A stretch of 61,265 nucleotides of DNA from a virus. A program made the translations under genes and the position numbers. Location: the IMG/VR virus record IMGVR_UViG_3300045988_080771, positions 1 to 61,265 of that record. One strand, given 5' to 3'. Positions 3,868 through 37,004 of this stretch are shown in pieces (position 1 is the stretch's first letter; each line of letters opens with the position of its first letter). The notes under the pieces are model-generated. The model worked only from the letters and a program-made list of their open reading frames with translations, did no database searches and had not been told where the DNA came from.

Positions 3868-4035
3868 ATGGCAACTAACAACAATAACAAGAACAAAGTA
3901 ACTTATTTCTCTGCAATCGCAATTGGTGTGGGAGTCGCAGCACTCTGTGCACAATCCATTTACCGAGCCGGGTATGATCACGGCGTTGCAGATACCAGTT
4001 TCAAGGCGATCTCCTGCATTCTCAAGTATCGCTAA
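3868..4035 (+). CDS. 55-aa membrane miniprotein on the + strand (preferred over the minus-strand ORF 3844..4044)
   Basis: Translated by hand: MATNNNNKNKVTYFSAIAIGVGVAALCAQSIYRAGYDHGVADTSFKAISCILKYR*. RBS gaaagga; co-oriented with every other gene. Confidence 0.55.
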   Translation: MATNNNNKNKVTYFSAIAIGVGVAALCAQSIYRAGYDHGVADTSFKAISCILKYR

Positions 4036-5657: not shown

Positions 5658-6407
5658 ATGGATATTCAGCATATTTTAAATGTATCAAAACACTTCGTCA
5701 AGAAGAATTCGCCAGCTATCCTAACTGGAATGGCAGTTGTTGGTGTAGTAACTGTTGCAGTATCTGCGGTAAAGGATACTCATGTTGCTGATCGTAAACT
5801 CAAGATCGCTCGTATTGAAAGTGGTCGAGAGCTTACTAAGGTCGAAACCTTAAAGACGGCAGTCCCGTGCTATATTCCGACTGGACTTAGTGTTGTCGCG
5901 ACTCTTGCCTGCATTGGTGGTGCACTCAAAGCTGGTAATTCCAAGACCGCTGCATATGCTTCGGCATATACTATGGCCCAGGAAGCAGCGAAGAACTATC
6001 GAACTCAGGTTGAACGTATACTCTCTGAAAAAGATATTGAGAAACTGAACAACGCAGTCGCGGATGATGCGATGGCCAAGAGCGATTCCAAACCGATTGT
6101 AGTCGGAAGCGGTAAGGTCCTGTGCTTCGATCAGTTCTCTGGACGATATTTCGAATCCGACATGCAGAGTCTTCGTGAGATTCAGAACGATCTGAATGAA
6201 CAATTGCTCAGTGACATGTGGGTTTCCGTTAATGAGTATTACGATAAACTCAAGCTGGAACCGATCAATGCAGGCGAAGAATTGGGCTGGAATCCTGATT
6301 ATAAGGTAAAGCTTCAGTATAGTTCCCGCTTGTCAGAAGATGGACGTCCTTGCCTGGTGGTATCATTCGATACCAGTCCATCTGCTGATTTCTATCGCAA
6401 GTACTGA
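5658..6407 (+). CDS. membrane-anchored protein (249 aa), paralog of 8463..9377
   Basis: Shared N-terminal block KKNSPAILTG(M/V)..VVG and a second hydrophobic segment. Confidence 0.75.
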   Translation: MDIQHILNVSKHFVKKNSPAILTGMAVVGVVTVAVSAVKDTHVADRKLKIARIESGRELTKVETLKTAVPCYIPTGLSVVATLACIGGALKAGNSKTAAYASAYTMAQEAAKNYRTQVERILSEKDIEKLNNAVADDAMAKSDSKPIVVGSGKVLCFDQFSGRYFESDMQSLREIQNDLNEQLLSDMWVSVNEYYDKLKLEPINAGEELGWNPDYKVKLQYSSRLSEDGRPCLVVSFDTSPSADFYRKY

Positions 6408-6764: not shown

Positions 6765-7307
6765 ATGATCAAGAAAACCCTCATTTACACCGATATCGAC
6801 GGTACTGAAGTCAAGGAAGATGCATATTTCCATCTGTCCCAGCGTGACCTCCGTCGTATGATCCGTAGCGGAGAGTTTGATCGACTTCAGGCAATTGCCA
6901 AGAAGATGACCGAACTCACCACGGATATGCCGGCTTCTGAGGTTATGAATACGGTTATGGACGCTGTTGATATTATCGTCAAGGCATCCTATGGCAAGCG
7001 TGTTCAGGATGAAGATCGCACTCGTTTCATCAAGAATGACAAGAGCACCGAACTCTTCATGGACTCCGAAGCATACGATGCTCTGATTGATGATCTGATC
7101 GACAATCCGGAATCTCTCACCGAATTCATGACTGATCTCTTCCCCGATAATGCTCGCAAGCAGGCCGACGATTATATTGAAAAGCATCCGGATGATGATG
7201 CTGTCAAGAACTATCTCGAAGCCAAGGCTCAGCTGGAAGCGAAGCAGGAAATCACTGAGAACGCTCAGCAGAATGTTCCTACCGTTCCGCCGATCGCGAA
7301 CATCTGA
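6765..7307 (+). CDS. acidic hypothetical protein (180 aa)
   Basis: ORF track; weak RBS aaagg. Confidence 0.65.
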   Translation: MIKKTLIYTDIDGTEVKEDAYFHLSQRDLRRMIRSGEFDRLQAIAKKMTELTTDMPASEVMNTVMDAVDIIVKASYGKRVQDEDRTRFIKNDKSTELFMDSEAYDALIDDLIDNPESLTEFMTDLFPDNARKQADDYIEKHPDDDAVKNYLEAKAQLEAKQEITENAQQNVPTVPPIANI

Positions 7308-10264: not shown

Positions 10265-10828
10265 ATGAACATCGATCTGAACCGATATGCTATGAAACGA
10301 TACGGTAACGGTGAATACGTTGGCTGGCTTATCGACAGAGTCGATGCATCTGATTACGATCAACTCGCAATAGCACTATTCAATATTGATTACTATTGGG
10401 ATATTCCAATGGATCAGAACCGTGCCGATGACGGTATATATTTGCGTCAGGTTTATTCTGATGAAACAGGTAAACACATCGATGCGGTTCTTGATCCATT
10501 GCTATCCACAGTACTTGAAATGCTTGTGGCATTTGCCGAACGAACCAATTTCATAACATCCGAGCGATACAGTACATCGCATTGGTTCAAGATGTTTATC
10601 TCGAATCTTGACATTGACTGGTATGATTATGCATATGTTGATGTCAATGGAATCGATAATGATGACATCATTAAAAAGGTGAATCACTTCATGCATCATG
10701 AGTACAATTATGATGGATCGAATGGTGGATTGTTCGTTGTGAATAATCCACCTCACGATCTTCGTGACACTGAGTTGTGGTATCAGATGCAGTATTGGAA
10801 TCAACAATTCGATATTCCAGAGATTTAG
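10265..10828 (+). CDS. hypothetical protein (187 aa)
   Basis: RBS gaggag; ORF track. Confidence 0.7.
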   Translation: MNIDLNRYAMKRYGNGEYVGWLIDRVDASDYDQLAIALFNIDYYWDIPMDQNRADDGIYLRQVYSDETGKHIDAVLDPLLSTVLEMLVAFAERTNFITSERYSTSHWFKMFISNLDIDWYDYAYVDVNGIDNDDIIKKVNHFMHHEYNYDGSNGGLFVVNNPPHDLRDTELWYQMQYWNQQFDIPEI

Positions 10829-10841
10829 AAAGGAGGATATT

Positions 10842-13724
10842 TTGGATCAGGTACAAGTGCATGAAGTTCACACTGGAAAGAACAAGGTAACCATTATCGC
10901 AGATCCTAAGATTCGTGGTTATCATGATCTTCTAGTGAGAGGCGGAGCATTCTACGCCGTTTATGATCCGGAATCTCACTTCTGGTCGAGGGATATTCGT
11001 AAACTTAGCGAGCTCATCGACAATGACATTAATCAGTATTACGATGATCATATTCAGGAACTGGAAGCTGAGGGATACACTGTAAGCCGTCAGCTTATGC
11101 AGAACATGTCAAACGGTGCATGGAATCGGTATATGAATTCATTCAAATATCTTCGTGACAATGAAGAGACATTGGACCAGAAGATGATATTTGCTGATCA
11201 AGTTCCGAGTCGAGAAGACTATGCAACCATGCAATTGCCATATTCTGTTGAACCAGGTGTATGTAATTCGTATAATAAATTGATGGGCGTTCTATATTCT
11301 GCGGACCAGCGTGAGAAACTGGAATGGGGAATCGGAGCGCTCGTCGATGGCACCCAGATAGATCAAATCCAGAAGATGTTTGTGATCTATGGCGATCCAG
11401 GAACTGGTAAATCAACGATCCTAAACATCATCGAAGAACTCTTTCCTGGATACATTGCATATTTCTCGGCTGATGAGTTGGGTAAAGGCTACACCTTTGC
11501 AACTGCTGCATTTAAGAACTCTCCGTTGATTGGCATCCAGCATGATGGCGATCTGTCGAAGATGTGGGATAACACAGTTCTGAATGAATTGGCAGCTCAT
11601 GAAACGATTGTCGTTAATGAGAAAGGTGTCAAGCAATATCCGATTCGTCCAAAGACTATGCTGTTTATGGCAACCAATAAGGCTGTCAAGATCACAGATT
11701 CGAAGGCTGGTCTTATTCGTCGTCTTATCGACATCGAACCAACTGGTACCAAGATGCCTCAAGATGAATATTTTGAGGCCATCGGTCAGATCAAATTCGA
11801 ATTGGGTGCCATTGCATACCATTGTCTTTCGGTATACAAGAGTCGTGGAGCTCATTATTATGATGGATATTCTCCGTTAAGTATGATCTCCAGGACGAAT
11901 GATATTTACAACTTCATTGAAGACAATTATGGTCTCGTAACTGATGCAGATGATGGAATCACACTTAACACTCTTTGGACAGCATTCAAAGAATGGCAGG
12001 ATGATACAAAGAACCAAATCGTAATGAAGCGAACAGACTTCATGTATGAAATGGCATCATATTACGATCGAATGGAACGTACTCGTCATGTCTCGAAATC
12101 ATATTCCACTTCAGGAGTGGTATTCTATGGTTTCAAATTTGACAAGTTTGAATCCAAGATCGAACGGATCACAGTCGGCACGCCTGACTGGCTGAAACTC
12201 GATAGTGATACGAGTGCCTTTGATACGATGGCTCAATCATATTCTGCACAACTCGCTCGTAACGATGAATGCGGAGCTCCACGAGTCTCTTGGGACAAGT
12301 GCACAACTACTCTCGCAGATATCGATACACATCAATTACATTGGGTCCGAGTACCTTCGAATCATATTGTTCTAGACTTTGATCTTCGTGGTGAAGACGG
12401 TGAGAAGAGTCTAGAAGCAAATATTGAAGCTGCAAAGGATTTTCCAAAGACATATGCTGAAGTATCCAAATCCGGTAATGGGCTACACTTGCATTATATT
12501 TATGATGGAGATGTGGACAAACTCAAGAACCTTTACAGCACTCATATCGAGGTAAAGGTTTACAAAGGTAAGTCCGCTCTTCGTCGTAAGTTGTATAAAT
12601 GCAATGATCTGGAAGTAGCGCATATTTCTTCAGGACTTCCACTGAAAGGAGAGAAGTCTATGATTAATAAATCGGAACTAGCAGACGAACAGCATCTTCG
12701 CAACATCATTAAGAACTGCTTACTCAAGAAGTATCAGCCTGGAACCAAACCCAGTATAGACTTTATTTGCAAGGTTCTAGATGAAGCTTATGAGCAAGGG
12801 CTCGCATATGATGTAAGCGATATGCGGAATGATATTCTGTCATTCGCCATGCGTTCTTCACATTGGGCTGACTATTGTATGACTGTAGTGTCCAATATGA
12901 AATTCAAATCTGAAAAAATGCCCGAAGGGAAATCTGATGAAAACATCGATAGTGTAGTCTTCTATGATGTCGAAGTTTTTCCCAATTTGTTCATGATCTG
13001 CTATATGCGAGATAATGAGGATGAAGTTCATTGCTGGATCAATCCACCTCGTAAGTCCGTAATGGCTCTTATGGAACAACCATTGGTTGGATTCAACAAT
13101 CGACGGTACGACAATCACATGCTCTATGCATGGGGTGGTCTTGGGTATGATAATTCGCAATTGTATGAATTGTCAAGCAAGATCGTGAATGGGGACAAAA
13201 ACGCATTATTCGGTCAAGCATACAATATATCCTATGCAGATATTTATGATTTCTCGTCGAAGAAGCAATCGCTTAAGAAATGGGAGATCGAATTAGGCAT
13301 TGATCATCATGAACTTGGAATGGATTGGACTAAACCAGTTCCCGAGAACATGTGGAAGGTCGTCGAAGGATATTGTAAGGATGATGTCCGAGCAACCAAG
13401 GCAGTCTTTCACCATTTGAGTGGTGATTTCGAAGCTAGAAAGATTCTTGCGCAGTTATCTGGATTGACGGTTAACGACACCAACAATACGCATACTGCGA
13501 AAATCATATTCGGCAATGAAATGCATCCTCAATCAAGTTTCAATTATCCGGATCTGGCCGAATTGTTCCCAGGCTATGTATTCGATCCATATGCTCCTAA
13601 GGACCAGAAGTCCAAGTATATGGGCGAGTATCCGTCAGAAGGCGGTTACGTATTTGTATATGGCATGGAGAATGGTGATGTCGATCAGGATTATATGAAT
13701 ATTAAACATCCATGGGAGGAATAA
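10842..13724 (+). CDS. fusion protein: SF3 (D5/P4-type) helicase + archaeo-eukaryotic-type primase + family-B DNA polymerase 3'-5' exonuclease domain
   Basis: Helicase: Walker A GDPGTGKST (11391-11417) and MLFMATN. Primase: VLDFDLRG and SKSGNGLHLHYIY (12369-12500). Exonuclease: Exo I FYDVEVFPN (about 12960), Exo II NNRRYDNHML, Exo III YCKDDVRAT. The protein ends 10 aa before the expected polymerase motif A. Start is uncertain: TTG at 10842 follows AGGAGG, with GTG at 10857 as the alternative. Confidence 0.75.
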   Translation: MDQVQVHEVHTGKNKVTIIADPKIRGYHDLLVRGGAFYAVYDPESHFWSRDIRKLSELIDNDINQYYDDHIQELEAEGYTVSRQLMQNMSNGAWNRYMNSFKYLRDNEETLDQKMIFADQVPSREDYATMQLPYSVEPGVCNSYNKLMGVLYSADQREKLEWGIGALVDGTQIDQIQKMFVIYGDPGTGKSTILNIIEELFPGYIAYFSADELGKGYTFATAAFKNSPLIGIQHDGDLSKMWDNTVLNELAAHETIVVNEKGVKQYPIRPKTMLFMATNKAVKITDSKAGLIRRLIDIEPTGTKMPQDEYFEAIGQIKFELGAIAYHCLSVYKSRGAHYYDGYSPLSMISRTNDIYNFIEDNYGLVTDADDGITLNTLWTAFKEWQDDTKNQIVMKRTDFMYEMASYYDRMERTRHVSKSYSTSGVVFYGFKFDKFESKIERITVGTPDWLKLDSDTSAFDTMAQSYSAQLARNDECGAPRVSWDKCTTTLADIDTHQLHWVRVPSNHIVLDFDLRGEDGEKSLEANIEAAKDFPKTYAEVSKSGNGLHLHYIYDGDVDKLKNLYSTHIEVKVYKGKSALRRKLYKCNDLEVAHISSGLPLKGEKSMINKSELADEQHLRNIIKNCLLKKYQPGTKPSIDFICKVLDEAYEQGLAYDVSDMRNDILSFAMRSSHWADYCMTVVSNMKFKSEKMPEGKSDENIDSVVFYDVEVFPNLFMICYMRDNEDEVHCWINPPRKSVMALMEQPLVGFNNRRYDNHMLYAWGGLGYDNSQLYELSSKIVNGDKNALFGQAYNISYADIYDFSSKKQSLKKWEIELGIDHHELGMDWTKPVPENMWKVVEGYCKDDVRATKAVFHHLSGDFEARKILAQLSGLTVNDTNNTHTAKIIFGNEMHPQSSFNYPDLAELFPGYVFDPYAPKDQKSKYMGEYPSEGGYVFVYGMENGDVDQDYMNIKHPWEE

Positions 13725-13969
13725 TGAATTATCAGTTAATCGAATATGCAGTTCGTCGCTATATCGATAAGAAAGGATATTTAAAACAGAAAAGAGATTA
13801 CAATCTGTCCATCAAATCGAGTGGATATATTTGTGGGAGTTACTATGCATTTGTCGTAACAGATGAACCAAGCGATGATCGTATTTACGAAGTAACGCAT
13901 CTGTCGAAGTCGAATACTACTGCGGTTAGCAGTTATCTTCAAGACGATAAAGCACCATTTTTCATATGA
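13724..13969 (+). CDS. hypothetical protein (81 aa), paralog of 14276..14554
   Basis: Shared blocks RRYI..K..LK, Y(A/Y)(F/Y)VVT and (R)(I/V)YEV(T/D)H; RBS gggagga; TAATG overlap. Confidence 0.65.
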   Translation: MNYQLIEYAVRRYIDKKGYLKQKRDYNLSIKSSGYICGSYYAFVVTDEPSDDRIYEVTHLSKSNTTAVSSYLQDDKAPFFI

Positions 13970-14040
13970 TAGATAAAAAGGAGTTAATCATGAATGATCA
14001 AAAAGATTATCAAGAATATGATCGAGAAATGATTCATATA
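13968..14040 (+). repeat. direct repeat copy 1 (RBS plus the first ~17 codons)
   Basis: gatagataaaaaggagttaatcatgaatgatcaaaaagattatcaagaatatgatcgagaaatgattcatata, matched to 14256-14334. Confidence 0.85.
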
Positions 14041-14238
14041 GCCGATATTGATACAGATCTACATCATTACGAAAACCTACTTGACAATCTACTTATCTAT
14101 GGTGATGATCGTAAGGATCGAACCGGCGTAGGAACTTCTGACGCAGATCGATATAACCAGAAGAGGTATCTGATGGAAACCCGTATGTCTGGTGCTCTGA
14201 CGAAGCTCGAGTCTGCGATAATTACTACATCTTCGTGA
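13990..14238 (+). pseudogene. chimeric remnant: the N-terminus of the 14276 ORF fused to a truncated thymidylate synthase N-terminal fragment
   Basis: Starts MNDQKDYQEYDREMIHI (as in the 14276 ORF), then [23 protein letters not shown] (ThyA-like; compare [13 protein letters not shown] in the intact thyA), then unrelated sequence and a stop. Confidence 0.6.
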
Positions 14239-14255
14239 TGGCGAAGATGAAAAGT

Positions 14256-14334
14256 AATAGATAAAGGAGTTAATCATGAATGATCAAAATGATCAAAATG
14301 ATTATCAAGAATATGATCGAGAAATGATTCATAT
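14256..14334 (+). repeat. direct repeat copy 2
   Basis: aatagataaaggagttaatcatgaatgatcaaaatgatcaaaatgattatcaagaatatgatcgagaaatgattcatat. Confidence 0.85.
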
Positions 14335-14554
14335 TTTCAATTCAGTTCGTCGTTATATCGAAGAGAAGGAATTTTTAAAAGAAGATTTCCGTCTAACCAT
14401 AAAAATGTATAGAGCATGTCTTGGACATCATTATGCATATGTCGTGACGAATGCTAAAAGTGACCCACGTGTCTATGAAGTGGATCATACCGATAATCCA
14501 GAGACCACCAAAGTTACCAGCTATCTTCGAGATGGCTATTCGATTTTAAAGTAA
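14276..14554 (+). CDS. hypothetical protein (92 aa), paralog of 13724..13969
   Basis: ORF track; RBS aaaggag. Confidence 0.65.
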   Translation: MNDQNDQNDYQEYDREMIHIFNSVRRYIEEKEFLKEDFRLTIKMYRACLGHHYAYVVTNAKSDPRVYEVDHTDNPETTKVTSYLRDGYSILK

Positions 14555-14576
14555 TAGATAAAGGAGTTAATCATGA
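14549..14576 (+). repeat. direct repeat copy 3 (28 bp, RBS portion only)
   Basis: aagtaatagataaaggagttaatcatga, identical to 14251-14278. Confidence 0.8.
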
Positions 14577-15466
14577 CTGGTATTGAAGAAACCTTTCCAG
14601 ACATTTATAAGAATGTTATGAAATATATGGACAATGATTTTATCAGAGTCGCGCATCTTCGTGATTCCACAACATTCTGTAACGATATGTATGAAAAGAC
14701 ATTGAAAAAGGTAGTCGATTTCGGAACTATTCGTAAGGATCGAACAGGAGTTGGTACTCTTTCAACATTTGGTCTCCGGATGGAATTCAATCTGTCGCTA
14801 TTTTTCCCACTGGTTACCACCAAGAAGGTATATTTGAAAGGTGTAATTGCCGAACTTCTGTGGTTCCTCAATGGTGATACCAACATCAAATACCTGAATG
14901 ACAATGGTGTTCATATTTGGGACGAATGGGCAGACGAGAATGGAGATCTCGGACCGATCTATGGTAAGCAATGGCGTGACTGGAATGGCGATCATATTGA
15001 TCAGATCCAAAATGCCATCGATCTTATCAAGAATGATCCATATTCTCGCAGGATCATTGTGAGTGCCTGGAATCCATCCCAGATTCCCGACATGGCTCTT
15101 CCGCCATGTCATACGTTCTTCCAGTTCTATGTTACGGAATCCGAACGTCTTGATTGTCAGATCTATCAGAGGTCTGCAGACATGTTCCTTGGAGTTCCGT
15201 TCAACATCGCATCATATTCTCTATTGACTATGATGATGGCCCAGCAGACTGGTCTTGAACCTGGACGTTTGATCTGGACTGGTGGCGATTGCCATATTTA
15301 TCTGAATCATTTCGATCAGGTTGAAACAGAGCTTCATCGAACTCCATATCCTTTCCCTACGATGAATATCGATAAAGCCAAGGATATTTTCAGTTACAAG
15401 CTTGAAGACTTCCATCTGGAAAACTACAAGTGTCATCCTGCAATCAAGGCTCCTGTGGCTGTATGA
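14573..15466 (+). CDS. thyA: thymidylate synthase (ThyA family)
   Basis: [31 protein letters not shown], catalytic ALPPCH, and [18 protein letters not shown] with the dUMP-type Asn. Confidence 0.9.
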
Positions 15467-15567
15467 TTGAAGAAATGTTTGAAAACTTCAGTGGCGAGAC
15501 ATTGATCGGTATTGCTATTATCGTGATATTTCTCGCCATTGCTCTATTTTTCGGAGATGAATCATGA
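15463..15567 (+). CDS. possible 34-aa hydrophobic coupling ORF between thyA and the PolB C-terminal half
   Basis: Translated by hand: [38 protein letters not shown] overlap with the thyA stop and with the start at 15564. Confidence 0.35.
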
Positions 15568-16640
15568 CTGACAAACCAATGCTAGGTGGTATGTTCGGTA
15601 ATGTCGCATTGTTAGATATTGCTTCGATGCATCCGCATTCGATCATTGCTATGAACATGTTCGGACCATATACGAAACGATACAAGGATATTCTAGACAC
15701 GCGTATCGCCATAAAGCATGGAGATTTCGAAACCGCTGAGAAGCTTCTGGACAACAAATTCACGGATGCTGAACTTCGTGAGAACCAGAAGATTCTATCG
15801 ACGGCATTGAAGATTCCTATCAATTCGGTTTATGGTTTGACTTCAGCTCATTTTCCGACAAGGTTCAATGATGTTGCGGCCGGACGACTCGATCGCAATA
15901 TGGACAATAAAGTTGCCAAGCGTGGTGCATTATTTATGATCACACTAAAGCACAAAGTCCAGGAGATGGGTTATACAGTAGTTCACATCAAGACCGATTC
16001 AATCAAGATCGCCGATGCTGATGATTATATTATCAACTGGGTGACTGAATTCGGCCATAAGTATGGATACACATTTGAGCATGAAGCAACCTATGACAAG
16101 CTTTGCATTGTCAATAAATCCACATATATTGCTCATTCCGCATGGGGTGAACATGCTGGTGAATGGACCGCTACTGGGTTGCAATTCCAGGTTCCTTATG
16201 TATTCAAAACCTTATTTTCAGGAGAACAAGTCAACCTGTCAGATCTATCGGAGGTCAAAAGTGTACAGACATCACTATATCTTGACTTCAATGAAGATTT
16301 GCCAGCAGATGAGCATAATTACTCATTCGTTGGAAAAGTTGGCGCATTCATTCCAGTCAAAAGTGGTTCCAATGGTGGTGAACTTGTCAGAAGCGATGGT
16401 AAAGGAGGATATTCAAGTGCTACCGGAGCAAAAGGCTATCGATGGAAAGAAGCATCATTAGTCCGCGAGAACAAACTCGCCGATGAAATCGACATGTCAT
16501 ATTACAACAAACTTGCCGATGATGCCATTGGAGCGATCAATGAACGTGGTGATTATAACTGGTTTGTTTCTGACGAACCTTATATTTCACCAAATCCAGA
16601 ATCAAACAAGACAATGGAGAGACTGTTCAATGGAGCTTAA
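15564..16640 (+). CDS. family-B DNA polymerase, polymerase-domain half (palm, fingers, thumb)
   Basis: Motif A LLDIASMHPHSII (15609-15641), motif B KIPINSVYGLT, motif C HIKTDSIKI (about 15981-16010). Own RBS ggag, with an in-frame stop 2 codons upstream. Confidence 0.8.
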   Translation: MTDKPMLGGMFGNVALLDIASMHPHSIIAMNMFGPYTKRYKDILDTRIAIKHGDFETAEKLLDNKFTDAELRENQKILSTALKIPINSVYGLTSAHFPTRFNDVAAGRLDRNMDNKVAKRGALFMITLKHKVQEMGYTVVHIKTDSIKIADADDYIINWVTEFGHKYGYTFEHEATYDKLCIVNKSTYIAHSAWGEHAGEWTATGLQFQVPYVFKTLFSGEQVNLSDLSEVKSVQTSLYLDFNEDLPADEHNYSFVGKVGAFIPVKSGSNGGELVRSDGKGGYSSATGAKGYRWKEASLVRENKLADEIDMSYYNKLADDAIGAINERGDYNWFVSDEPYISPNPESNKTMERLFNGA

Positions 16641-22370: not shown

Positions 22371-22916
22371 ATGGTAATGTGGTCTATAATTCCCCAACAT
22401 CCGAAATACACAGCATCGAATACTGGCGAGGTTTGCCGAATAAGCACTGGACATATTCTTAAGAAGTTCAAGATGCAAAATGGTTATAATTATGTCTGCA
22501 TCGATCGAAAGAATATTTTAGTCGCTCGTCTCGTCTGTGCTGCATTTATGGAAGACTTTGATATCGAAGACAGCTACATTGTCGTCCATCATATTCATGA
22601 TAAGAGCGATGATTCACTCGATAATCTTGAAATCATGGAACGTAGTGAGTTGCTTGATCTTGTTGAGCCATATTTCGCCGATGGTCTTCCGCGAGGTCGC
22701 GCCAGTCTGAAATACGGAACGAAATACGATAAGAAAGCTGTGCCGATTCAATGCATTGAAACTGGTCACATATTTCCATCCGCTAAACATGCTGCCAAAT
22801 GGCTCGAGCAAATCGGATGTGGATATTTGTGTGCCGGTTATGTTTATCGCATTGCAAAAGATAGCAAGGAAGGAGTTCGAGGTTACCATTTTCGACGTTT
22901 GGATAAACGCGAATAA
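22371..22916 (+). CDS. HNH homing endonuclease (HNH_3/NUMOD4-like)
   Basis: N-terminal W..IP..P.Y..S..G.V, HNH core VVHHIHDKSDDSLDNLEIM, and a C-terminal IENR-like segment IQCIETGHIFPSAKHAAKWL. Confidence 0.75.
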   Translation: MVMWSIIPQHPKYTASNTGEVCRISTGHILKKFKMQNGYNYVCIDRKNILVARLVCAAFMEDFDIEDSYIVVHHIHDKSDDSLDNLEIMERSELLDLVEPYFADGLPRGRASLKYGTKYDKKAVPIQCIETGHIFPSAKHAAKWLEQIGCGYLCAGYVYRIAKDSKEGVRGYHFRRLDKRE

Positions 22917-24368: not shown

Positions 24369-27344
24369 ATGAACTTTGTTGGCCAACAAGAAACTTATTC
24401 CGACGATTTGAACGAAGTAGACAATTATATCGAGCACTACGGAACTCCTCATTCTGGAGCCGTCCCGCATTCTGGACGATATCCTTGGGGTTCTGGTGAT
24501 TCCCGTTTCAAAGATGCGGGAAGTTTTCTAAGCCGATATCATGAACTACGAAAGTCTGGTATGTCTGATGCTCAAGCTGCGAAAGCTTTAGGTATGACTA
24601 CCAATCAGATTCGTGCATATCGTTCCATCGCTACCAATCAAGAGCGCGCCGCACTTTCTGCTAAAGCATATAAGCTTAAGGAACGTGGTTGGGGTGCTAC
24701 CGCTATTGCTAAAAAGCTTTCCGAAAGTGAAGGGCGAGAGATCAATGAGTCGACCGTCCGTTCTCTTTTGGATCCTTCTCGTAAAGCTCGAATGGATTCA
24801 ACTACTCAACTTGCGGAGTCTCTTAAGAAGACAATCCCTGAAGGTGGAGCAGTTTCAATCGGTAAGGGTGACGAGCTATTTCTTGGTGTAACCGCGGACA
24901 AATTGAAAGTCGCTACGACTATGCTTGAGTCCGAAGGATATCAAGTAAAGAATCTTTACGTTGATCAGCTTGGAATGAAGGGCAAGAAAGTTACTGTTAA
25001 AGTGCTTGCTGCCCCTGGAGCAAAGCTGGACGATCTTTATAACAATCCAGACAAAGTTGCATTCATTGCTAAGTCAGAACCAATAGCTGAAGCTAATGAT
25101 CTTGGATTAAAACCACCAGTTGCTGTAAAGTCATCTCGTGTCGCCGTTCGTTATGGAGATAAAGGCGGTGTCGAGAAAGATGGCACTATGGAGATTAATC
25201 CTCAAGCTGTTGATCTTCGTCTTTCACCTAAAGGTGTTGATAAGAAATACGCCCAGGTTCGAATCTCTGTTGATGGCACCCATTACTTAAAGGGTATGGC
25301 CGTTTATGGTGATCCTAAATCATTCCCTCCTGGTGTTGACATCATATTTAACACTAACAAAAATAGCAGCACTCCAAAAATGGATGTGTTCAAGAAGATG
25401 AAGGATGATCCCGATAATCCATTCGGTGCAACCGTACGACAGTATGATTACATTGATCCAAAGACTGGAAAGACTAAACAATCTCCAATCAATCTTGTGA
25501 ATGATGAAGGTACTTGGTCTGAATGGAGTCGTAATCTTCCTTCTCAGGTTCTTTCGAAGCAGTCTGAGGCATTGGCTAAACGACAGCTTGGATGGGCTTA
25601 CGATCGTTACAAAATGGAATATGATGAGATTAATTCTCTGACTAATCCAGTGGTTAAACGAAAGTTGATGAAAGAGTTCTCTGATTCATGCGATTCTGCA
25701 GCAGTTCATATGAAGGCGGCTGCAATGCCTAGGCAGAGTACTCGAGTAATTCTTCCTATTCCTTCTTTGAAGGATAATGAGATCTATGCTCCTCATCTTA
25801 ACAATGGTGAGAAGGTAGTTCTTGTTCGTTTTCCACATGGCGGTCGTTTCGAAATACCTGAACTGATTGTTAATAACAACAATCGAGAAGGCAAACGAGT
25901 TCTTGGAACAAACCCTAAGGATGCTGTTGGAATCAATGCCCATGTTGCTGGAATCCTTTCAGGTGCGGATTTCGATGGTGATACTGTTCTCGTAATTCCA
26001 AATAATCGAGGAGAGTTTAAACGAAGAGATCCATTGCCTGGTCTTAAGAACTTCAATCCTAGTGAGGCATATCCAAAGTATGAAGGTATGAAAGTTATAT
26101 CCTCTCGAGAGAAACAGCTTGAGATGGGTAAAGTTTCGAACCTTATTACTGATATGACTCTCAAGGGTGCAGGATGGGATGAGATTGAACGTGCTGTCAA
26201 ACATTCTATGGTCGTGATCGATTCTGAAAAGCATGAGTTGAACTACAAACAATCTGAGAAGGACTATGGAATCCGTGCTTTGAAAGCTAAGTGGCAAGGT
26301 GGTTCTAATAAAGGTGCCTCCACTCTTATTTCGAAAGCAACATCCGATGCCCGTATCAATGAAAGAAAGCTCCGCTCTGCTAAAGATGGTGGTCCTATTG
26401 ATCCAAAGACCGGTAAGTATGTTTGGGAAGAGACTGGGTCTCATTATGAAGTGACCAAGTCCCATACAATTAAACCTTCTGATATTAAGAATGGTAAAGT
26501 AACCGACCCAGTCTCTGGTAAAAAGGTCCCCGTCTTTTCTGAGGAGACCACCACTAAGTCTGGTCGTAAGAAAGTTTCTTACTACTATGAGGCCCTTGAT
26601 TATAAAGGTGACCCCGTCTTTGATAAAAAGACCGGGGCTCGTAAACGTGGAACTAAGGCCACCACCTTTGATGATAAAGGTAACCCAATAGTTGAAACTA
26701 AATACCGCCAGGTTAAGGTACCTAAGATGTCCCTTGTGGACGATGCCCTATCTCTTTCTTCAGGTACGGGCATGGAAGAAATTTATGGTACCCATGCTAA
26801 TAAATTAAAAGCCCTTGGTAATGAAGCCCGTAAGACCTATGTCAATACAGAGGTCTTTAAGGTGGACTCAAAAGCACGTACCCAATACGCAAGCGAGGTT
26901 GCTTCTCTCAATGCTAAGCTTAATACTGCATTGAAGAACATGCCTTTGGAAAGGCGTGCGCAAATGCTTGCTAATCAACAAGTAAAAGCTCGTCAATATG
27001 ACAATCCAAATCTGGATGAAGACCAGCTTAAGCGGTTGAAACAGCAGGCCCTCCATGGTGCTCGATTGAAGGTCGGTGCCGATAAGAAGTCAGTCACAAT
27101 ACACATTACTGATGGTGAATGGAAAGCGATTCAAGATCGTGCAATTTCATCTAGCAAACTGGAAGAGATTCTAAGGTTCGCGGATGAAGATGAAGTAAAG
27201 CAACTCGCATTGCCTCGTCAAGGAGTAAAGGTTCCGCCTTACATCATTTCAAAGGCAAAAACCTTGATCAATAAAGGTTATACTGTGGCAGAAGTAGCTG
27301 ATGCAGTGGGCGTTAGTGTGTCGACTCTTGAGAAAAGTCTTTAG
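24369..27344 (+). CDS. putative single-polypeptide double-psi-beta-barrel RNA polymerase (YonO / RdRP-like) with N- and C-terminal HTH segments
   Basis: aa 261-270 RYGDKGGVEK resembles beta RHGNKGVISK. aa 484-543 VLVRFPHGGRFEI..INAHVAGILSGADFDGDTVLVIP resembles beta-prime [37 protein letters not shown]. HTH-like segments at aa 65-134 and 962-991. Confidence 0.6.
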   Translation: MNFVGQQETYSDDLNEVDNYIEHYGTPHSGAVPHSGRYPWGSGDSRFKDAGSFLSRYHELRKSGMSDAQAAKALGMTTNQIRAYRSIATNQERAALSAKAYKLKERGWGATAIAKKLSESEGREINESTVRSLLDPSRKARMDSTTQLAESLKKTIPEGGAVSIGKGDELFLGVTADKLKVATTMLESEGYQVKNLYVDQLGMKGKKVTVKVLAAPGAKLDDLYNNPDKVAFIAKSEPIAEANDLGLKPPVAVKSSRVAVRYGDKGGVEKDGTMEINPQAVDLRLSPKGVDKKYAQVRISVDGTHYLKGMAVYGDPKSFPPGVDIIFNTNKNSSTPKMDVFKKMKDDPDNPFGATVRQYDYIDPKTGKTKQSPINLVNDEGTWSEWSRNLPSQVLSKQSEALAKRQLGWAYDRYKMEYDEINSLTNPVVKRKLMKEFSDSCDSAAVHMKAAAMPRQSTRVILPIPSLKDNEIYAPHLNNGEKVVLVRFPHGGRFEIPELIVNNNNREGKRVLGTNPKDAVGINAHVAGILSGADFDGDTVLVIPNNRGEFKRRDPLPGLKNFNPSEAYPKYEGMKVISSREKQLEMGKVSNLITDMTLKGAGWDEIERAVKHSMVVIDSEKHELNYKQSEKDYGIRALKAKWQGGSNKGASTLISKATSDARINERKLRSAKDGGPIDPKTGKYVWEETGSHYEVTKSHTIKPSDIKNGKVTDPVSGKKVPVFSEETTTKSGRKKVSYYYEALDYKGDPVFDKKTGARKRGTKATTFDDKGNPIVETKYRQVKVPKMSLVDDALSLSSGTGMEEIYGTHANKLKALGNEARKTYVNTEVFKVDSKARTQYASEVASLNAKLNTALKNMPLERRAQMLANQQVKARQYDNPNLDEDQLKRLKQQALHGARLKVGADKKSVTIHITDGEWKAIQDRAISSSKLEEILRFADEDEVKQLALPRQGVKVPPYIISKAKTLINKGYTVAEVADAVGVSVSTLEKSL

Positions 27345-35018: not shown

Positions 35019-37004
35019 ATGCCAAAACCTGATTTTAGTGGCTATGCCACTCGAAATAATATTCAGTGTGCTGATGGCAAGATCATTGCCAGGAATGCAT
35101 TCATTGATCAGGATGGAACCCGGGTTCCTTTGGTCTATATGCACGACCATAATGATCCAATGAATATCTTGGGGCACGCTGATCTTGAAAATCGTGAAGA
35201 TGGTGTCTATTGCTATGGGTATCTCAACAATACCCCGAATGCTCAGGTTATGCGTGAGCAGATTGAGCATGGTGATGTCAATAGTCTTTCCATCTTTGCA
35301 AATCATTTGAAGCACAATGCAAATGTGATTACCCATGGTGAGATCAAGGAAGTGAGTCTTGTTCTTGCTGGCGCTAATCCTGGTGCTTACATTGAAAATG
35401 TCTCCATTCAGCATGGTGACTATTCTGATGAATTCGATGAAGCTATCATCTATTCGGATGATGATCTCGATTCTGAGGAAGAAGTCGAAGACGAAACCGC
35501 CGATGAAGAAGAGTTTGAACATGATGACACTTCTGACGATTCGGAGGAGTCCGATGATTCCAAAGATCAGACTGTTGCTGAAGTTCTTGACTCTATGAAT
35601 CAGGAACAGCAGTCGGTCGTCTTCGCTCTTATCGATATGGCTAAGAAGGGTATTAAACCTTCTGATACTGTCGAGCATTCCGATGACGGTGGAAAGACCG
35701 TCGGTGAAGTATTCGATAGCATGACCGATCTGCAGCGTAACGTTGCTTATGCTCTTATCTCTAAAGCTATCGATGGCGATTCTTCTGATTCGGACGATCA
35801 GACGGACGCTCAAAATGAGAAGAATTCGTCCGATGAAGCAAAACATTCTGACTTTGAAGGAGCAGATGATATGCATACTAATGTATTCGAAGGTACTAAC
35901 GCCAATGACGAGGTGGACTACACCACTCTGAGCCATGCTGATATGGCCGAAATGATTAAGGACGCTGAGCATGTCGGCTCTATGCGTGCCTATTTCAAGA
36001 ATATGACTGATCCGGATACTGGTGAGGTCACTCTTGCCCATGATGATACCCATATCTATGGTATCCAGAATATTGACGTTCTTTTCCCGGATGCCAAGGC
36101 AATCCGAAATACTCCGGATTTCTATAAGCGTCGCACTGAGTGGGTGAACGGGGTCCTTAACGGTACTACCCATGTTCCGTTCTCTCGTATCAAGTCGATG
36201 TATGCTGATATTACCAAGGATGAGGCTCGTGCAAAGGGTTATACCCTCGACCGTAATAAGAACAATCGTAAGACTGAGGAAGTCTTCAATGTTCTGAAGC
36301 GTACTACCGAACCGCAGACCGTCTATAAGAAGCAGAAGCTCGATCGTGATGATATCATTGATATTACCGATTTCGATGTGGTTGCTTGGCTTAAGGTCGA
36401 AATGCGTGTCATGTTCGATGAGGAAATTGCCCGTGCAATCCTCATTGGTGACGGTCGTGATTCTTCTTCTGTGGATAAGATCCGTACTGATCGCATTCGT
36501 CCTATTGCATTTGATGATGATCTCTATACCATCAAGAAGACCCTTAGCAAGAAGTTCGATCTGACTGGCGACATTCAGACTCGTACCGCTAAGGCGCTCG
36601 AGCTTGTTGATGCCGTCACCGAGGCTCAGGTGGATTACCAGGGCTCTGGAACTCCGACTCTGTATGCCGCTCCGAAGATGATCGCAGCTATGCTGACTTG
36701 CCGCGATACTCTTAACCATCGTCTGTGGAGGACCCGTGCCGATCTGGCAGCTGAGCTGAATGTCTCCAACATTGTCGATGTCCCGGTCATGGAAACCGCT
36801 AAGGATTCTGATGGTAATCCGCTCCTCGGTATCATCGTGAATCTTCGTGATTACACTGTCGGTGCTGATAAGGGTGGTTCGATTTCGATGTTCGATGATT
36901 TCGATATTGATTTCAACCAGCAGGTATATCTGATGGAATCTCGTGCTTCGGGTGCTCTTACTTATCCGAAGTCTGCGATTGCGCTGTTCTCCCCAAAAGC
37001 GTGA
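35019..37004 (+). CDS. fusion of an HK97-type prohead protease (S78), an acidic linker and an HK97-fold major capsid protein
   Basis: N-terminal ~125 aa is S78-like (PLVYMHDHNDP..., SLSIFAN, EVSLVLAGANPGAYI). aa ~130-290 is D/E/S-rich. C-terminal ~360 aa is capsid-like (KQKLDRDDIIDITDFDVVAWLKVEMR..ILIGDGR). Confidence 0.7.
   Translation: MPKPDFSGYATRNNIQCADGKIIARNAFIDQDGTRVPLVYMHDHNDPMNILGHADLENREDGVYCYGYLNNTPNAQVMREQIEHGDVNSLSIFANHLKHNANVITHGEIKEVSLVLAGANPGAYIENVSIQHGDYSDEFDEAIIYSDDDLDSEEEVEDETADEEEFEHDDTSDDSEESDDSKDQTVAEVLDSMNQEQQSVVFALIDMAKKGIKPSDTVEHSDDGGKTVGEVFDSMTDLQRNVAYALISKAIDGDSSDSDDQTDAQNEKNSSDEAKHSDFEGADDMHTNVFEGTNANDEVDYTTLSHADMAEMIKDAEHVGSMRAYFKNMTDPDTGEVTLAHDDTHIYGIQNIDVLFPDAKAIRNTPDFYKRRTEWVNGVLNGTTHVPFSRIKSMYADITKDEARAKGYTLDRNKNNRKTEEVFNVLKRTTEPQTVYKKQKLDRDDIIDITDFDVVAWLKVEMRVMFDEEIARAILIGDGRDSSSVDKIRTDRIRPIAFDDDLYTIKKTLSKKFDLTGDIQTRTAKALELVDAVTEAQVDYQGSGTPTLYAAPKMIAAMLTCRDTLNHRLWRTRADLAAELNVSNIVDVPVMETAKDSDGNPLLGIIVNLRDYTVGADKGGSISMFDDFDIDFNQQVYLMESRASGALTYPKSAIALFSPKA
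36992..36998 (+). promoter_or_regulatory. candidate -1 programmed frameshift heptamer C_CCA_AAA
   Basis: Zero-frame codons are tcC CCA AAA gcg tga. A -1 slip reads ccc aaa agc gtg acg..., which is the frame of ORF 37001..37318. Confidence 0.45.

Follow-up and report, generated by a model that had tools for sequence, protein, structure and literature searches.

The DNA analysed here, called the window throughout, is a 61,265-nt stretch of viral DNA (IMG/VR record IMGVR_UViG_3300045988_080771, positions 1 to 61,265). It carries a gene for a fused primase/helicase–family-B DNA polymerase (PolB) that is interrupted between positions 13724 and 15564. Comparison with related phages indicates that this gene very probably specifies a functional PolB made as two polypeptides, which would associate and polymerize DNA together. 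The first piece would combine primase/helicase and proofreading exonuclease with the first palm-hairpin strand and a clade-specific tail of 22 residues. The second would supply the motif-A strand, the remainder of the palm, the fingers and the thumb, and the two would reassemble non-covalently. An earlier note, made from the letters of the window, had located the split at 13725-15563 and had set three outcomes side by side without choosing among them, namely a two-piece polymerase, splicing at the RNA level or an inactive enzyme. The coordinates and content it gave are borne out by the open reading frames (ORFs) and by the partition of a polymerase profile between them. As to the outcomes, comparative evidence strongly supports the two-piece polymerase, whereas RNA splicing is unsupported and inactivity is contradicted.

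Three kinds of match identify the gene as a PolB cut in two. The profile of PHROG 4210 ('DNA polymerase', length 1304) is divided between the two ORFs, with positions 8-949 in fragment 1 and 953-1296 in fragment 2, and the split loses only about 3 profile positions; a second PHROG 'DNA polymerase' family, 1252, was also matched. A profile of relatives matches E. coli Pol II (3k57) with an E value of 1.8e-8, aligning motifs A, B and C and placing GGYV...PGxY...LDxxSLYPS column for column. Finally, an AlphaFold2 (AF2) model of the relative P0023, with a predicted local distance difference test score (pLDDT) of 87, was compared with the PDB by Foldseek, and the best 50 matches were all PolB enzymes (pol alpha, KOD, Pol II and pol delta; E values down to 4e-10). 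Fragment 1 contains a DUF5906/D5-type NTPase of the primase-helicase kind (Pfam E 4.9e-12), exonuclease motifs I to III (DxE; Nx2-3[FY]D; Yx3D) as FYDVEVFPN, GFNNRRYDNHML and YCKDDVRAT, and, towards its end, the first palm strand GGYVF and the tail. Its C terminus reads GGYVFVYGMENGDVDQDYMNIKHPWEE before the stop codon, or, over a longer stretch, SEGGYVFVYGMENGDVDQDYMNIKHPWEE. Fragment 2 opens with a head of eight non-conserved residues, MTDKPMLG, followed by the motif-A strand GMFGNVALLDIASMHPHS, and holds motif A (LLDIASMHPHS), motif B (KIPINSVYG), motif C (HIKTDSI), the fingers and the thumb. The two ORFs, each with its own start and stop, thus jointly span the intact homologue, as the genes of a two-gene PolB do. 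The ORF of fragment 1 as found mechanically is 10764-13724, beginning at GTG 10764; its true start is likely to be TTG 10842, which sits five bases past AAGGAGG and directly beyond the stop codon of the upstream gene. Fragment 2 has a GGAG 8 nt upstream, and its ATG overlaps the TGA of a 34-amino-acid (aa) ORF (ATGA).

The break divides the palm hairpin: GGYVF lies on one side of it and the motif-A strand on the other, with the motif-A aspartate about 10 residues further on. The Pol II alignment and the AF2 model both uphold this position, which the earlier note had proposed. For the model, the exonuclease domain and tail of the window protein were fused straight to fragment 2, and the alignment consisted of this concatenate and database proteins. 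The prediction has a pLDDT of 91.9, and the distal tail (residues 253-267) is the one part that scores under 50. GGYVF and GMFGNVALLD are adjacent strands in this model, so the break appears to lie in the loop of the first palm hairpin; fragment 1 is modelled as giving one strand of the hairpin and fragment 2 as giving the motif-A strand with the catalytic aspartate. Because the break is in a surface hairpin loop, the strands could pair across a subunit boundary. As the chains were fused artificially and the distal tail was modelled with low confidence, the model is uninformative on the binding partner of the tail.

Comparison with relatives, which the earlier note had recommended, shows that the break is inherited. 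Seven metagenomic phages that are nearly identical and were independently assembled (L002-L008) have the same break, as does the Bifidobacterium phage BitterVaud1 (L001), whose deposited genome is complete and whose host is named (Bifidobacterium asteroides). Break and tail also recur in at least eight more distant lineages (L009, L020, L023-L031). In all, more than 15 loci share the break, the most distant at about 60% identity. Intact forms were found as well, among them Gordonia and Arthrobacter phage records, Curtobacterium phage Pippin15 and loci L010-L018, and in these only 2 codons lie between the residues that end fragment 1 and those that begin fragment 2. Among representatives of clusters at 50% identity, most family members are 1,250-1,450 aa long, and the spacing from GGYV to PGMY is 7 residues in 46 of the 58 representatives in which the pattern matched. 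Proteins of the window type of fragment 2 form 24 clusters at 90% identity, leaving aside P0022, an artefact of a scaffold gap. What lies in the gap differs widely. The ORFs overlap in L026 (by 8 nt) and in L020, where fragment 2 retains an N-terminal extension of ~62 aa; the gap is 86 nt in L023 and 59 nt in L029-L031. The split thus exists without any insert. Elsewhere the gap holds one ORF of ~95 aa (L009 and L025), two small ORFs (L027), a DUF6275 ORF with an HNH_3 endonuclease (L024), a 213-aa ORF (BitterVaud1) or, in the window and L002-L008, cassettes with the thymidylate synthase gene thyA. Because the break is shared and the contents of the gap differ, we consider the break to be old and stable and the cargo young and changeable. 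That the break is ancestral to the whole clade, and the cargo variable, is visible from the relatives and not from the window alone.

A second inherited feature is the tail of fragment 1. Throughout the split clade it conforms to the consensus VYGMxNGxxDxDYxxIxPxWE, which is not found in intact relatives. Its mean pairwise identity is 0.60 across nine lineages, compared with 0.41-0.81 for blocks of 50 residues elsewhere in the protein, and this value holds between lineages whose fragments share 62-69% identity; the 8-residue head of fragment 2 reaches just 0.32 in the same comparison. The last codons of the tail double as the ribosome-binding site (RBS) of the next gene, orfA (GGGAGG). Some relatives carry additional residues in the same loop in frame: P0363 has 27, and P0241 (1,368 aa) and P0023 have tail, a linker of ~70-85 aa and head in one frame, the tail forming the first part of the in-frame insertion; the linker of P0023 is modelled as helical. 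The conserved tail probably aids assembly of the two pieces, by analogy with a split enzyme discussed below. The earlier note had seen in the tail a loose echo of the head, as if the junction had been duplicated. This idea did not survive: Smith-Waterman scores of tail against head were at chance level (2,000 shuffles, nine lineages, p = 0.2-0.9), only 'GM' is common to both, most tails have PA or PR in place of the HP, and the repeats that border the insert in the DNA are short and of the kind expected by chance. Judged from the alignments, the tail is a conserved clade-specific sequence and not a duplicated junction.

Phage polymerase genes are classic hosts of introns (SPO1, with I-HmuI), and an I-HmuI-like HNH gene is present in another gap of this polymerase family. 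The insert might therefore be an intron (group I or group II) whose cargo is unusual, spliced to give one continuous polymerase. We regard this as very unlikely. Searches with Rfam found no intron in 13300-16000 at E values up to 10, nor any at the gathering threshold in five related loci. There is also little space for one, as the non-coding part of the insert does not reach 60 nt. Moreover, the tail of fragment 1 is conserved as protein, fragment 2 has its own RBS and start codon, and L026 and L020 have the same two ORFs with overlapping stop and start codons and no insert. The earlier note had recognized no intron, intein or homing endonuclease in the gap, and the Pfam, PHROG and Rfam searches of 13725-15563 agree with it on all three, no homing endonuclease gene being detected there with Pfam or PHROG.

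An interruption this close to a catalytic aspartate (10 residues) would ordinarily damage an enzyme, and the gene could be imagined as a dead pseudogene, broken by the insertion, in a phage replicated by a host polymerase or by another polymerase. The ratio of nonsynonymous to synonymous substitution rates (dN/dS) leaves hardly any room for this explanation. The ratio is 0.022-0.087 for fragment 1 and 0.067-0.097 for fragment 2, i.e., 0.02-0.10 over both halves, compared with 0.13-0.22 for thyA; these values indicate strong purifying selection on both halves. Selection on both halves, together with an inherited split, is what distinguishes a two-gene PolB. In addition, the catalytic motifs are all intact, the break persists in lineages that are only about 60% identical and in the complete genome of BitterVaud1, and a scan of eight ORFs of 400 aa or more in the window revealed no second DNA polymerase. 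Given the low dN/dS, the conservation of the tail and the lack of another polymerase among these eight ORFs, an inactive gene is excluded for practical purposes.

Fractured genes with split inteins flanking endonuclease genes do occur in metagenomes (PMC2677866), and the halves might be joined by protein trans-splicing. The chance of this is negligible: the tail (22 aa) and the head (8 aa) are below any known pair of intein halves, no Hint domain was matched in Pfam, the tail begins V-Y-G with no Cys or Ser, the end of the head lacks His-Asn plus a nucleophile, and the head is not conserved. An assembly or sequencing artefact hiding a contiguous polB is equally far-fetched, for although two apparent splits in relatives (the 'FPGY' split of P0023, L019 ~5940-5990, and that of P0022, L035 ~3955-3964) proved to be 10-N scaffold gaps, the window has no run of N at the break, and seven independent assemblies and one deposited complete genome share its architecture, tail, start codon and RBS.

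Several points weigh against a functional two-piece polymerase or the history that we propose for it. The two-piece enzyme of this phage is deduced from sequence and models, and the chains of the AF2 model were joined artificially, with low confidence in the distal tail. The screen for a second polymerase covered ORFs of at least 400 aa. A neighbor-joining tree, which has no support values, groups every tail-bearing form together and nests the in-frame, unsplit forms inside the split clade; an in-frame insertion may have been followed by the break, or a split by re-fusion. Lastly, the gap of the window contains no endonuclease, so a mobile-element origin of the break is suggested by the relatives.

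The features of the locus are listed in Table 1. The gap (13725-15563) is 1,839 nt long, and its ORFs are all co-directional and tightly packed.

Table 1. Features of the split polymerase locus in the window
Feature	Position	Strand	Size	Basis or remark
polB fragment 1	10842..13724	+	960 aa from TTG 10842	ORF search, domain matches, dN/dS
C-terminal tail, VYGMENGDVDQDYMNIKHPWEE	13656..13721	+	22 codons	alignment of relatives
orfA	13724..13969	+	81 aa	start overlaps fragment 1 stop (TAATG)
chimeric remnant ORF	13966..14238	+	90 aa	RBS-backed start ATG 13990; window-specific
foreign fragment	14147..14219	+	73 nt	94.6% identical to MT836057
junction repeat ATAGATAAAGGAGTTAATCATGA (RBS + start)	14257..14279	+	23 nt	repeat search
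orfA2	14276..14554	+	92 aa	orfA paralogue
thyA, intact thymidylate synthase	14573..15466	+	297 aa	PF00303 positions 2-266 of 266, E 2.8e-118
34-aa ORF, one predicted membrane helix	15463..15567	+	34 aa	kept in all close relatives
polB fragment 2	15564-16640	+	358 aa	ORF, profile, model, dN/dS

The earlier note had described the contents of the gap as two paralogous small ORFs, a thyA remnant, an intact thyA and a 34-aa ORF. The paralogy is real (orfA and orfA2 share 48% identity, E 4e-19), and thyA is full length and carries the PPCH active-site motif. The remnant also exists, but thyA accounts for just one part of a three-part chimera. Its first piece has 16-25 aa in common with the N terminus of orfA2; its second corresponds to ~33 aa of the thyA N terminus (..RKDRTGVGT), with 28 nt that are 86% identical to the intact thyA; and its C-terminal 30 aa come from a capsid/protease gene. 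The foreign DNA in this last piece matches contig MT836057, from an unrelated phage of human faeces, at the 3' end of its gene for a prohead protease/capsid fusion, and over this region the capsid-protease ORF of the window itself (35019-37004) has only 65% protein identity. From these matches, 14147-14219 appears to be the scar of an illegitimate recombination with another phage. The junction repeat ATAGATAAAGGAGTTAATCATGA has further copies at 13971-13993 (3 mismatches) and 14554-14576, making three, all within the insert, where the chance expectation is 0; it also lies upstream of thyA in every close relative. The 34-aa ORF overlaps the stop codon of thyA with its start and the start of fragment 2 with its stop. 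Because the genes run in the same direction, mostly with overlapping stop and start codons, thyA may be co-expressed with the replication genes and supply deoxythymidine monophosphate. No Pfam or PHROG match was found for orfA, orfA2, the 34-aa ORF or the 213-aa ORF of BitterVaud1. Membership of orfA in DUF6275 was considered on the basis of a BLAST E value of 0.024 and discarded as unsupported, the hhalign probability being 1.7% and a Pfam match being absent. DUF6275 itself is the cargo beside the HNH gene in L024.

Among the close relatives the cassette varies between phages whose fragment 2 proteins are ~95% identical and whose DNA identity across the block is 87-93%. orfA lies directly 3' of fragment 1 in all seven, and orfA2 is limited to the window and L005. 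Five (L002, L003, L006, L007 and L008) have an extra ORF of 57 aa at 6835-7008, between the 34-aa membrane ORF and fragment 2, that has no family match and is absent from the window, L004 and L005. The N termini of thyA are mosaic. Nucleotide identity between the window and L002, L005 and L006 is ~70% along fragment 1, rises to at least 95% at a point 60-160 nt before the fragment 1 stop (~13560-13660) and remains high across cargo and fragment 2; L003, L007 and L008 show the same low-to-high pattern against the window. L004 is the opposite, with 94.5% identity through fragment 1 and divergence inside orfA (13902-13921). The jump in identity near the end of fragment 1 suggests that phages with diverged fragment 1 genes exchange the tail, the cargo and fragment 2 together as a single block.

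These observations are consistent with the following history. The break would have arisen once, in an ancestor of the clade, most likely by insertion of mobile DNA. The gap would then have become a cargo site at which genes were gained, lost, duplicated and exchanged, the exchange proceeding by recombination through the conserved flanks and the repeated RBS/start junction. In the window this would have left orfA, the recombination scar, orfA2, thyA and the small membrane ORF. We put forward tentatively, as a possibility to which we would not commit ourselves, a stronger form of this proposal. The hairpin break may be a long-lived intragenic 'cargo bay' in a replicase gene. In it thyA, HNH genes and small ORFs would be swapped as one unit, along with the tail and fragment 2, among phages that differ in fragment 1 down to 69% identity, and the tail would have become specialized for assembly, so that the break carries no selective cost.

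Endonuclease genes are found in two gaps of the polymerase family. Besides the HNH_3 gene of L024, which occupies the gap discussed here, HNH_3/I-HmuI-like genes lie at L021 5421-6011 and L022 2074-2664 in a second gap, ~35 residues upstream, before FPGY. This FPGY gap is a second, independent split in the same family. About 40 of the 120 best homologues of fragment 2 begin at the FPGY site, and others begin at '(S/T)VNDTTN'. HNH genes in two gaps of the relatives therefore point to homing-endonuclease traffic as the cause of fragmentation of genes in this polymerase family. In the window a 181-aa ORF with a NUMOD4 motif (22371-22916, + strand) is located 6.8 kb downstream of the split; it is weakly similar (E 2.5e-6) to HNH endonucleases in or beside the split polB of relatives and resembles a free-standing homing endonuclease.

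Other apparent splits in the family were examined and set aside. Beneath the scaffold gaps of L019 and L035 the gene is continuous, with tail, helical linker and head in one frame, and P0037 and P0086, which start at MYGNV, reflect in-frame stops inside an otherwise continuous gene. In-frame stops are seen in L033 (~50-52, TGA at the Gly of GGYVY) and L034 (~187-189, TAG at Tyr), which may represent recoding (e.g., TGA=Gly, code 25) or errors. Many homologues of the exonuclease domain stand alone, at ~260-300 aa, on contigs of 12-22 kb (P0142, P0153, P0158 and P0181), a pattern that suggests that the proofreading domain is a separate gene in further lineages. A homologue search begun from the exonuclease domain together with the tail yielded short fragments for the most part and failed to pick up the long proteins; its results were used as alignment rows only.

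Fragmented replicases are known from several phages and an archaeon. The T4-related Aeromonas and Acinetobacter phages 25, 31, 44RR, 65 and 133 have a bicistronic gp43 (43A/43B), as described by Petrov et al. (2006, 2010) and summarized in PMC2988022 and PMC3061061. The intercistronic DNA varies from 2 bp to 3 kb and in some cases includes a homing-endonuclease gene, and the site is described as an insertion hotspot; the halves co-purify and are active (PMC2988022). The window polymerase resembles split gp43 in that neighbouring genes, with variable DNA between them, encode the two parts of a phage family-B replicase. However, the gp43 break is at the fingertip of the fingers domain, according to PMC3061061, while that of the window is upstream of the fingers, in the palm hairpin. 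The window polymerase is also, unlike gp43, a primase/helicase-PolB fusion of siphoviruses, its cargo includes a metabolic gene, thyA, and it has a conserved 22-aa tail. PolB is also split in Methanothermobacter thermautotrophicus, and an N/palm split is predicted for Rhodothermus phage RM378 (both as summarized in PMC3061061). These resemble the window in being two-gene PolBs. The Methanothermobacter genes are 85 kb apart, however, with a break later in the palm (PMC3061061); neither a cargo locus nor a conserved tail is described for either system, and both belong to unrelated sequence lineages. In the intron-interrupted polymerase genes of SPO1 (gene 31, with I-HmuI) and Pf-WMP3 (PMC3428280), the interruption is likewise near catalytic motifs, and HNH/I-HmuI-like endonucleases are tied to such sites in relatives. 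In these two phages self-splicing ribozymes restore one ORF, whereas the window has two ORFs and no ribozyme.

The closest mechanistic parallel is a different enzyme, the NrdA of Aeromonas phage Aeh1 (NrdA-a/mobE/NrdA-b), which mobE cuts between adjacent strands of the active-site barrel and which cannot be active without the new tails formed at the break (PMC3045599). As in Aeh1, an essential enzyme is cut between adjacent beta-strands at the active site, there are tails at the break, and the downstream piece overlaps the inserted gene. The function of Aeh1 NrdA is restored by non-covalent assembly, and the window polymerase may be assembled in a similar manner; likewise, the essential role of a tail has been demonstrated for Aeh1 NrdA and would be expected, by analogy, for the polymerase. 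The Aeh1 gap keeps its endonuclease while that of the window has none; in the relative L024 an HNH_3 gene occupies the same gap. The Aeh1 split is also unique to one phage, whereas the split described here is clade-wide. We found no paper describing the polymerase split of this clade.

One other large ORF of the window deserves mention. A 991-aa ORF (24369-27344, + strand) matches PHROG 4291, 'RNA-dependent RNA polymerase' (E = 0), and has a C-terminal helix-turn-helix; by its sequence it may encode a phage single-subunit two-barrel (YonO/QDE-1-like) RNA polymerase.

In summary, the two-gene PolB is an already established kind of enzyme, and the present locus opens no new biological category. 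What is new is the position of the break, which lies within the first hairpin of the palm at a distance of 10 residues from the catalytic aspartate, together with a conserved tail that is testable as an assembly element and a graded natural series of states that includes BitterVaud1. Split replicases show the modularity of family-B polymerases and the ways in which phages neutralize the harm that selfish DNA causes. In practice, surveys using polB as a marker gene would miscount such phages: in BitterVaud1 all three genes at the locus, both polB halves included, are annotated by pipelines as 'hypothetical protein'. If the tentative cargo-bay proposal were true, this series, from unsplit with an in-frame insert through split without cargo to split with cargo, would serve for studying how an essential enzyme becomes multi-subunit.

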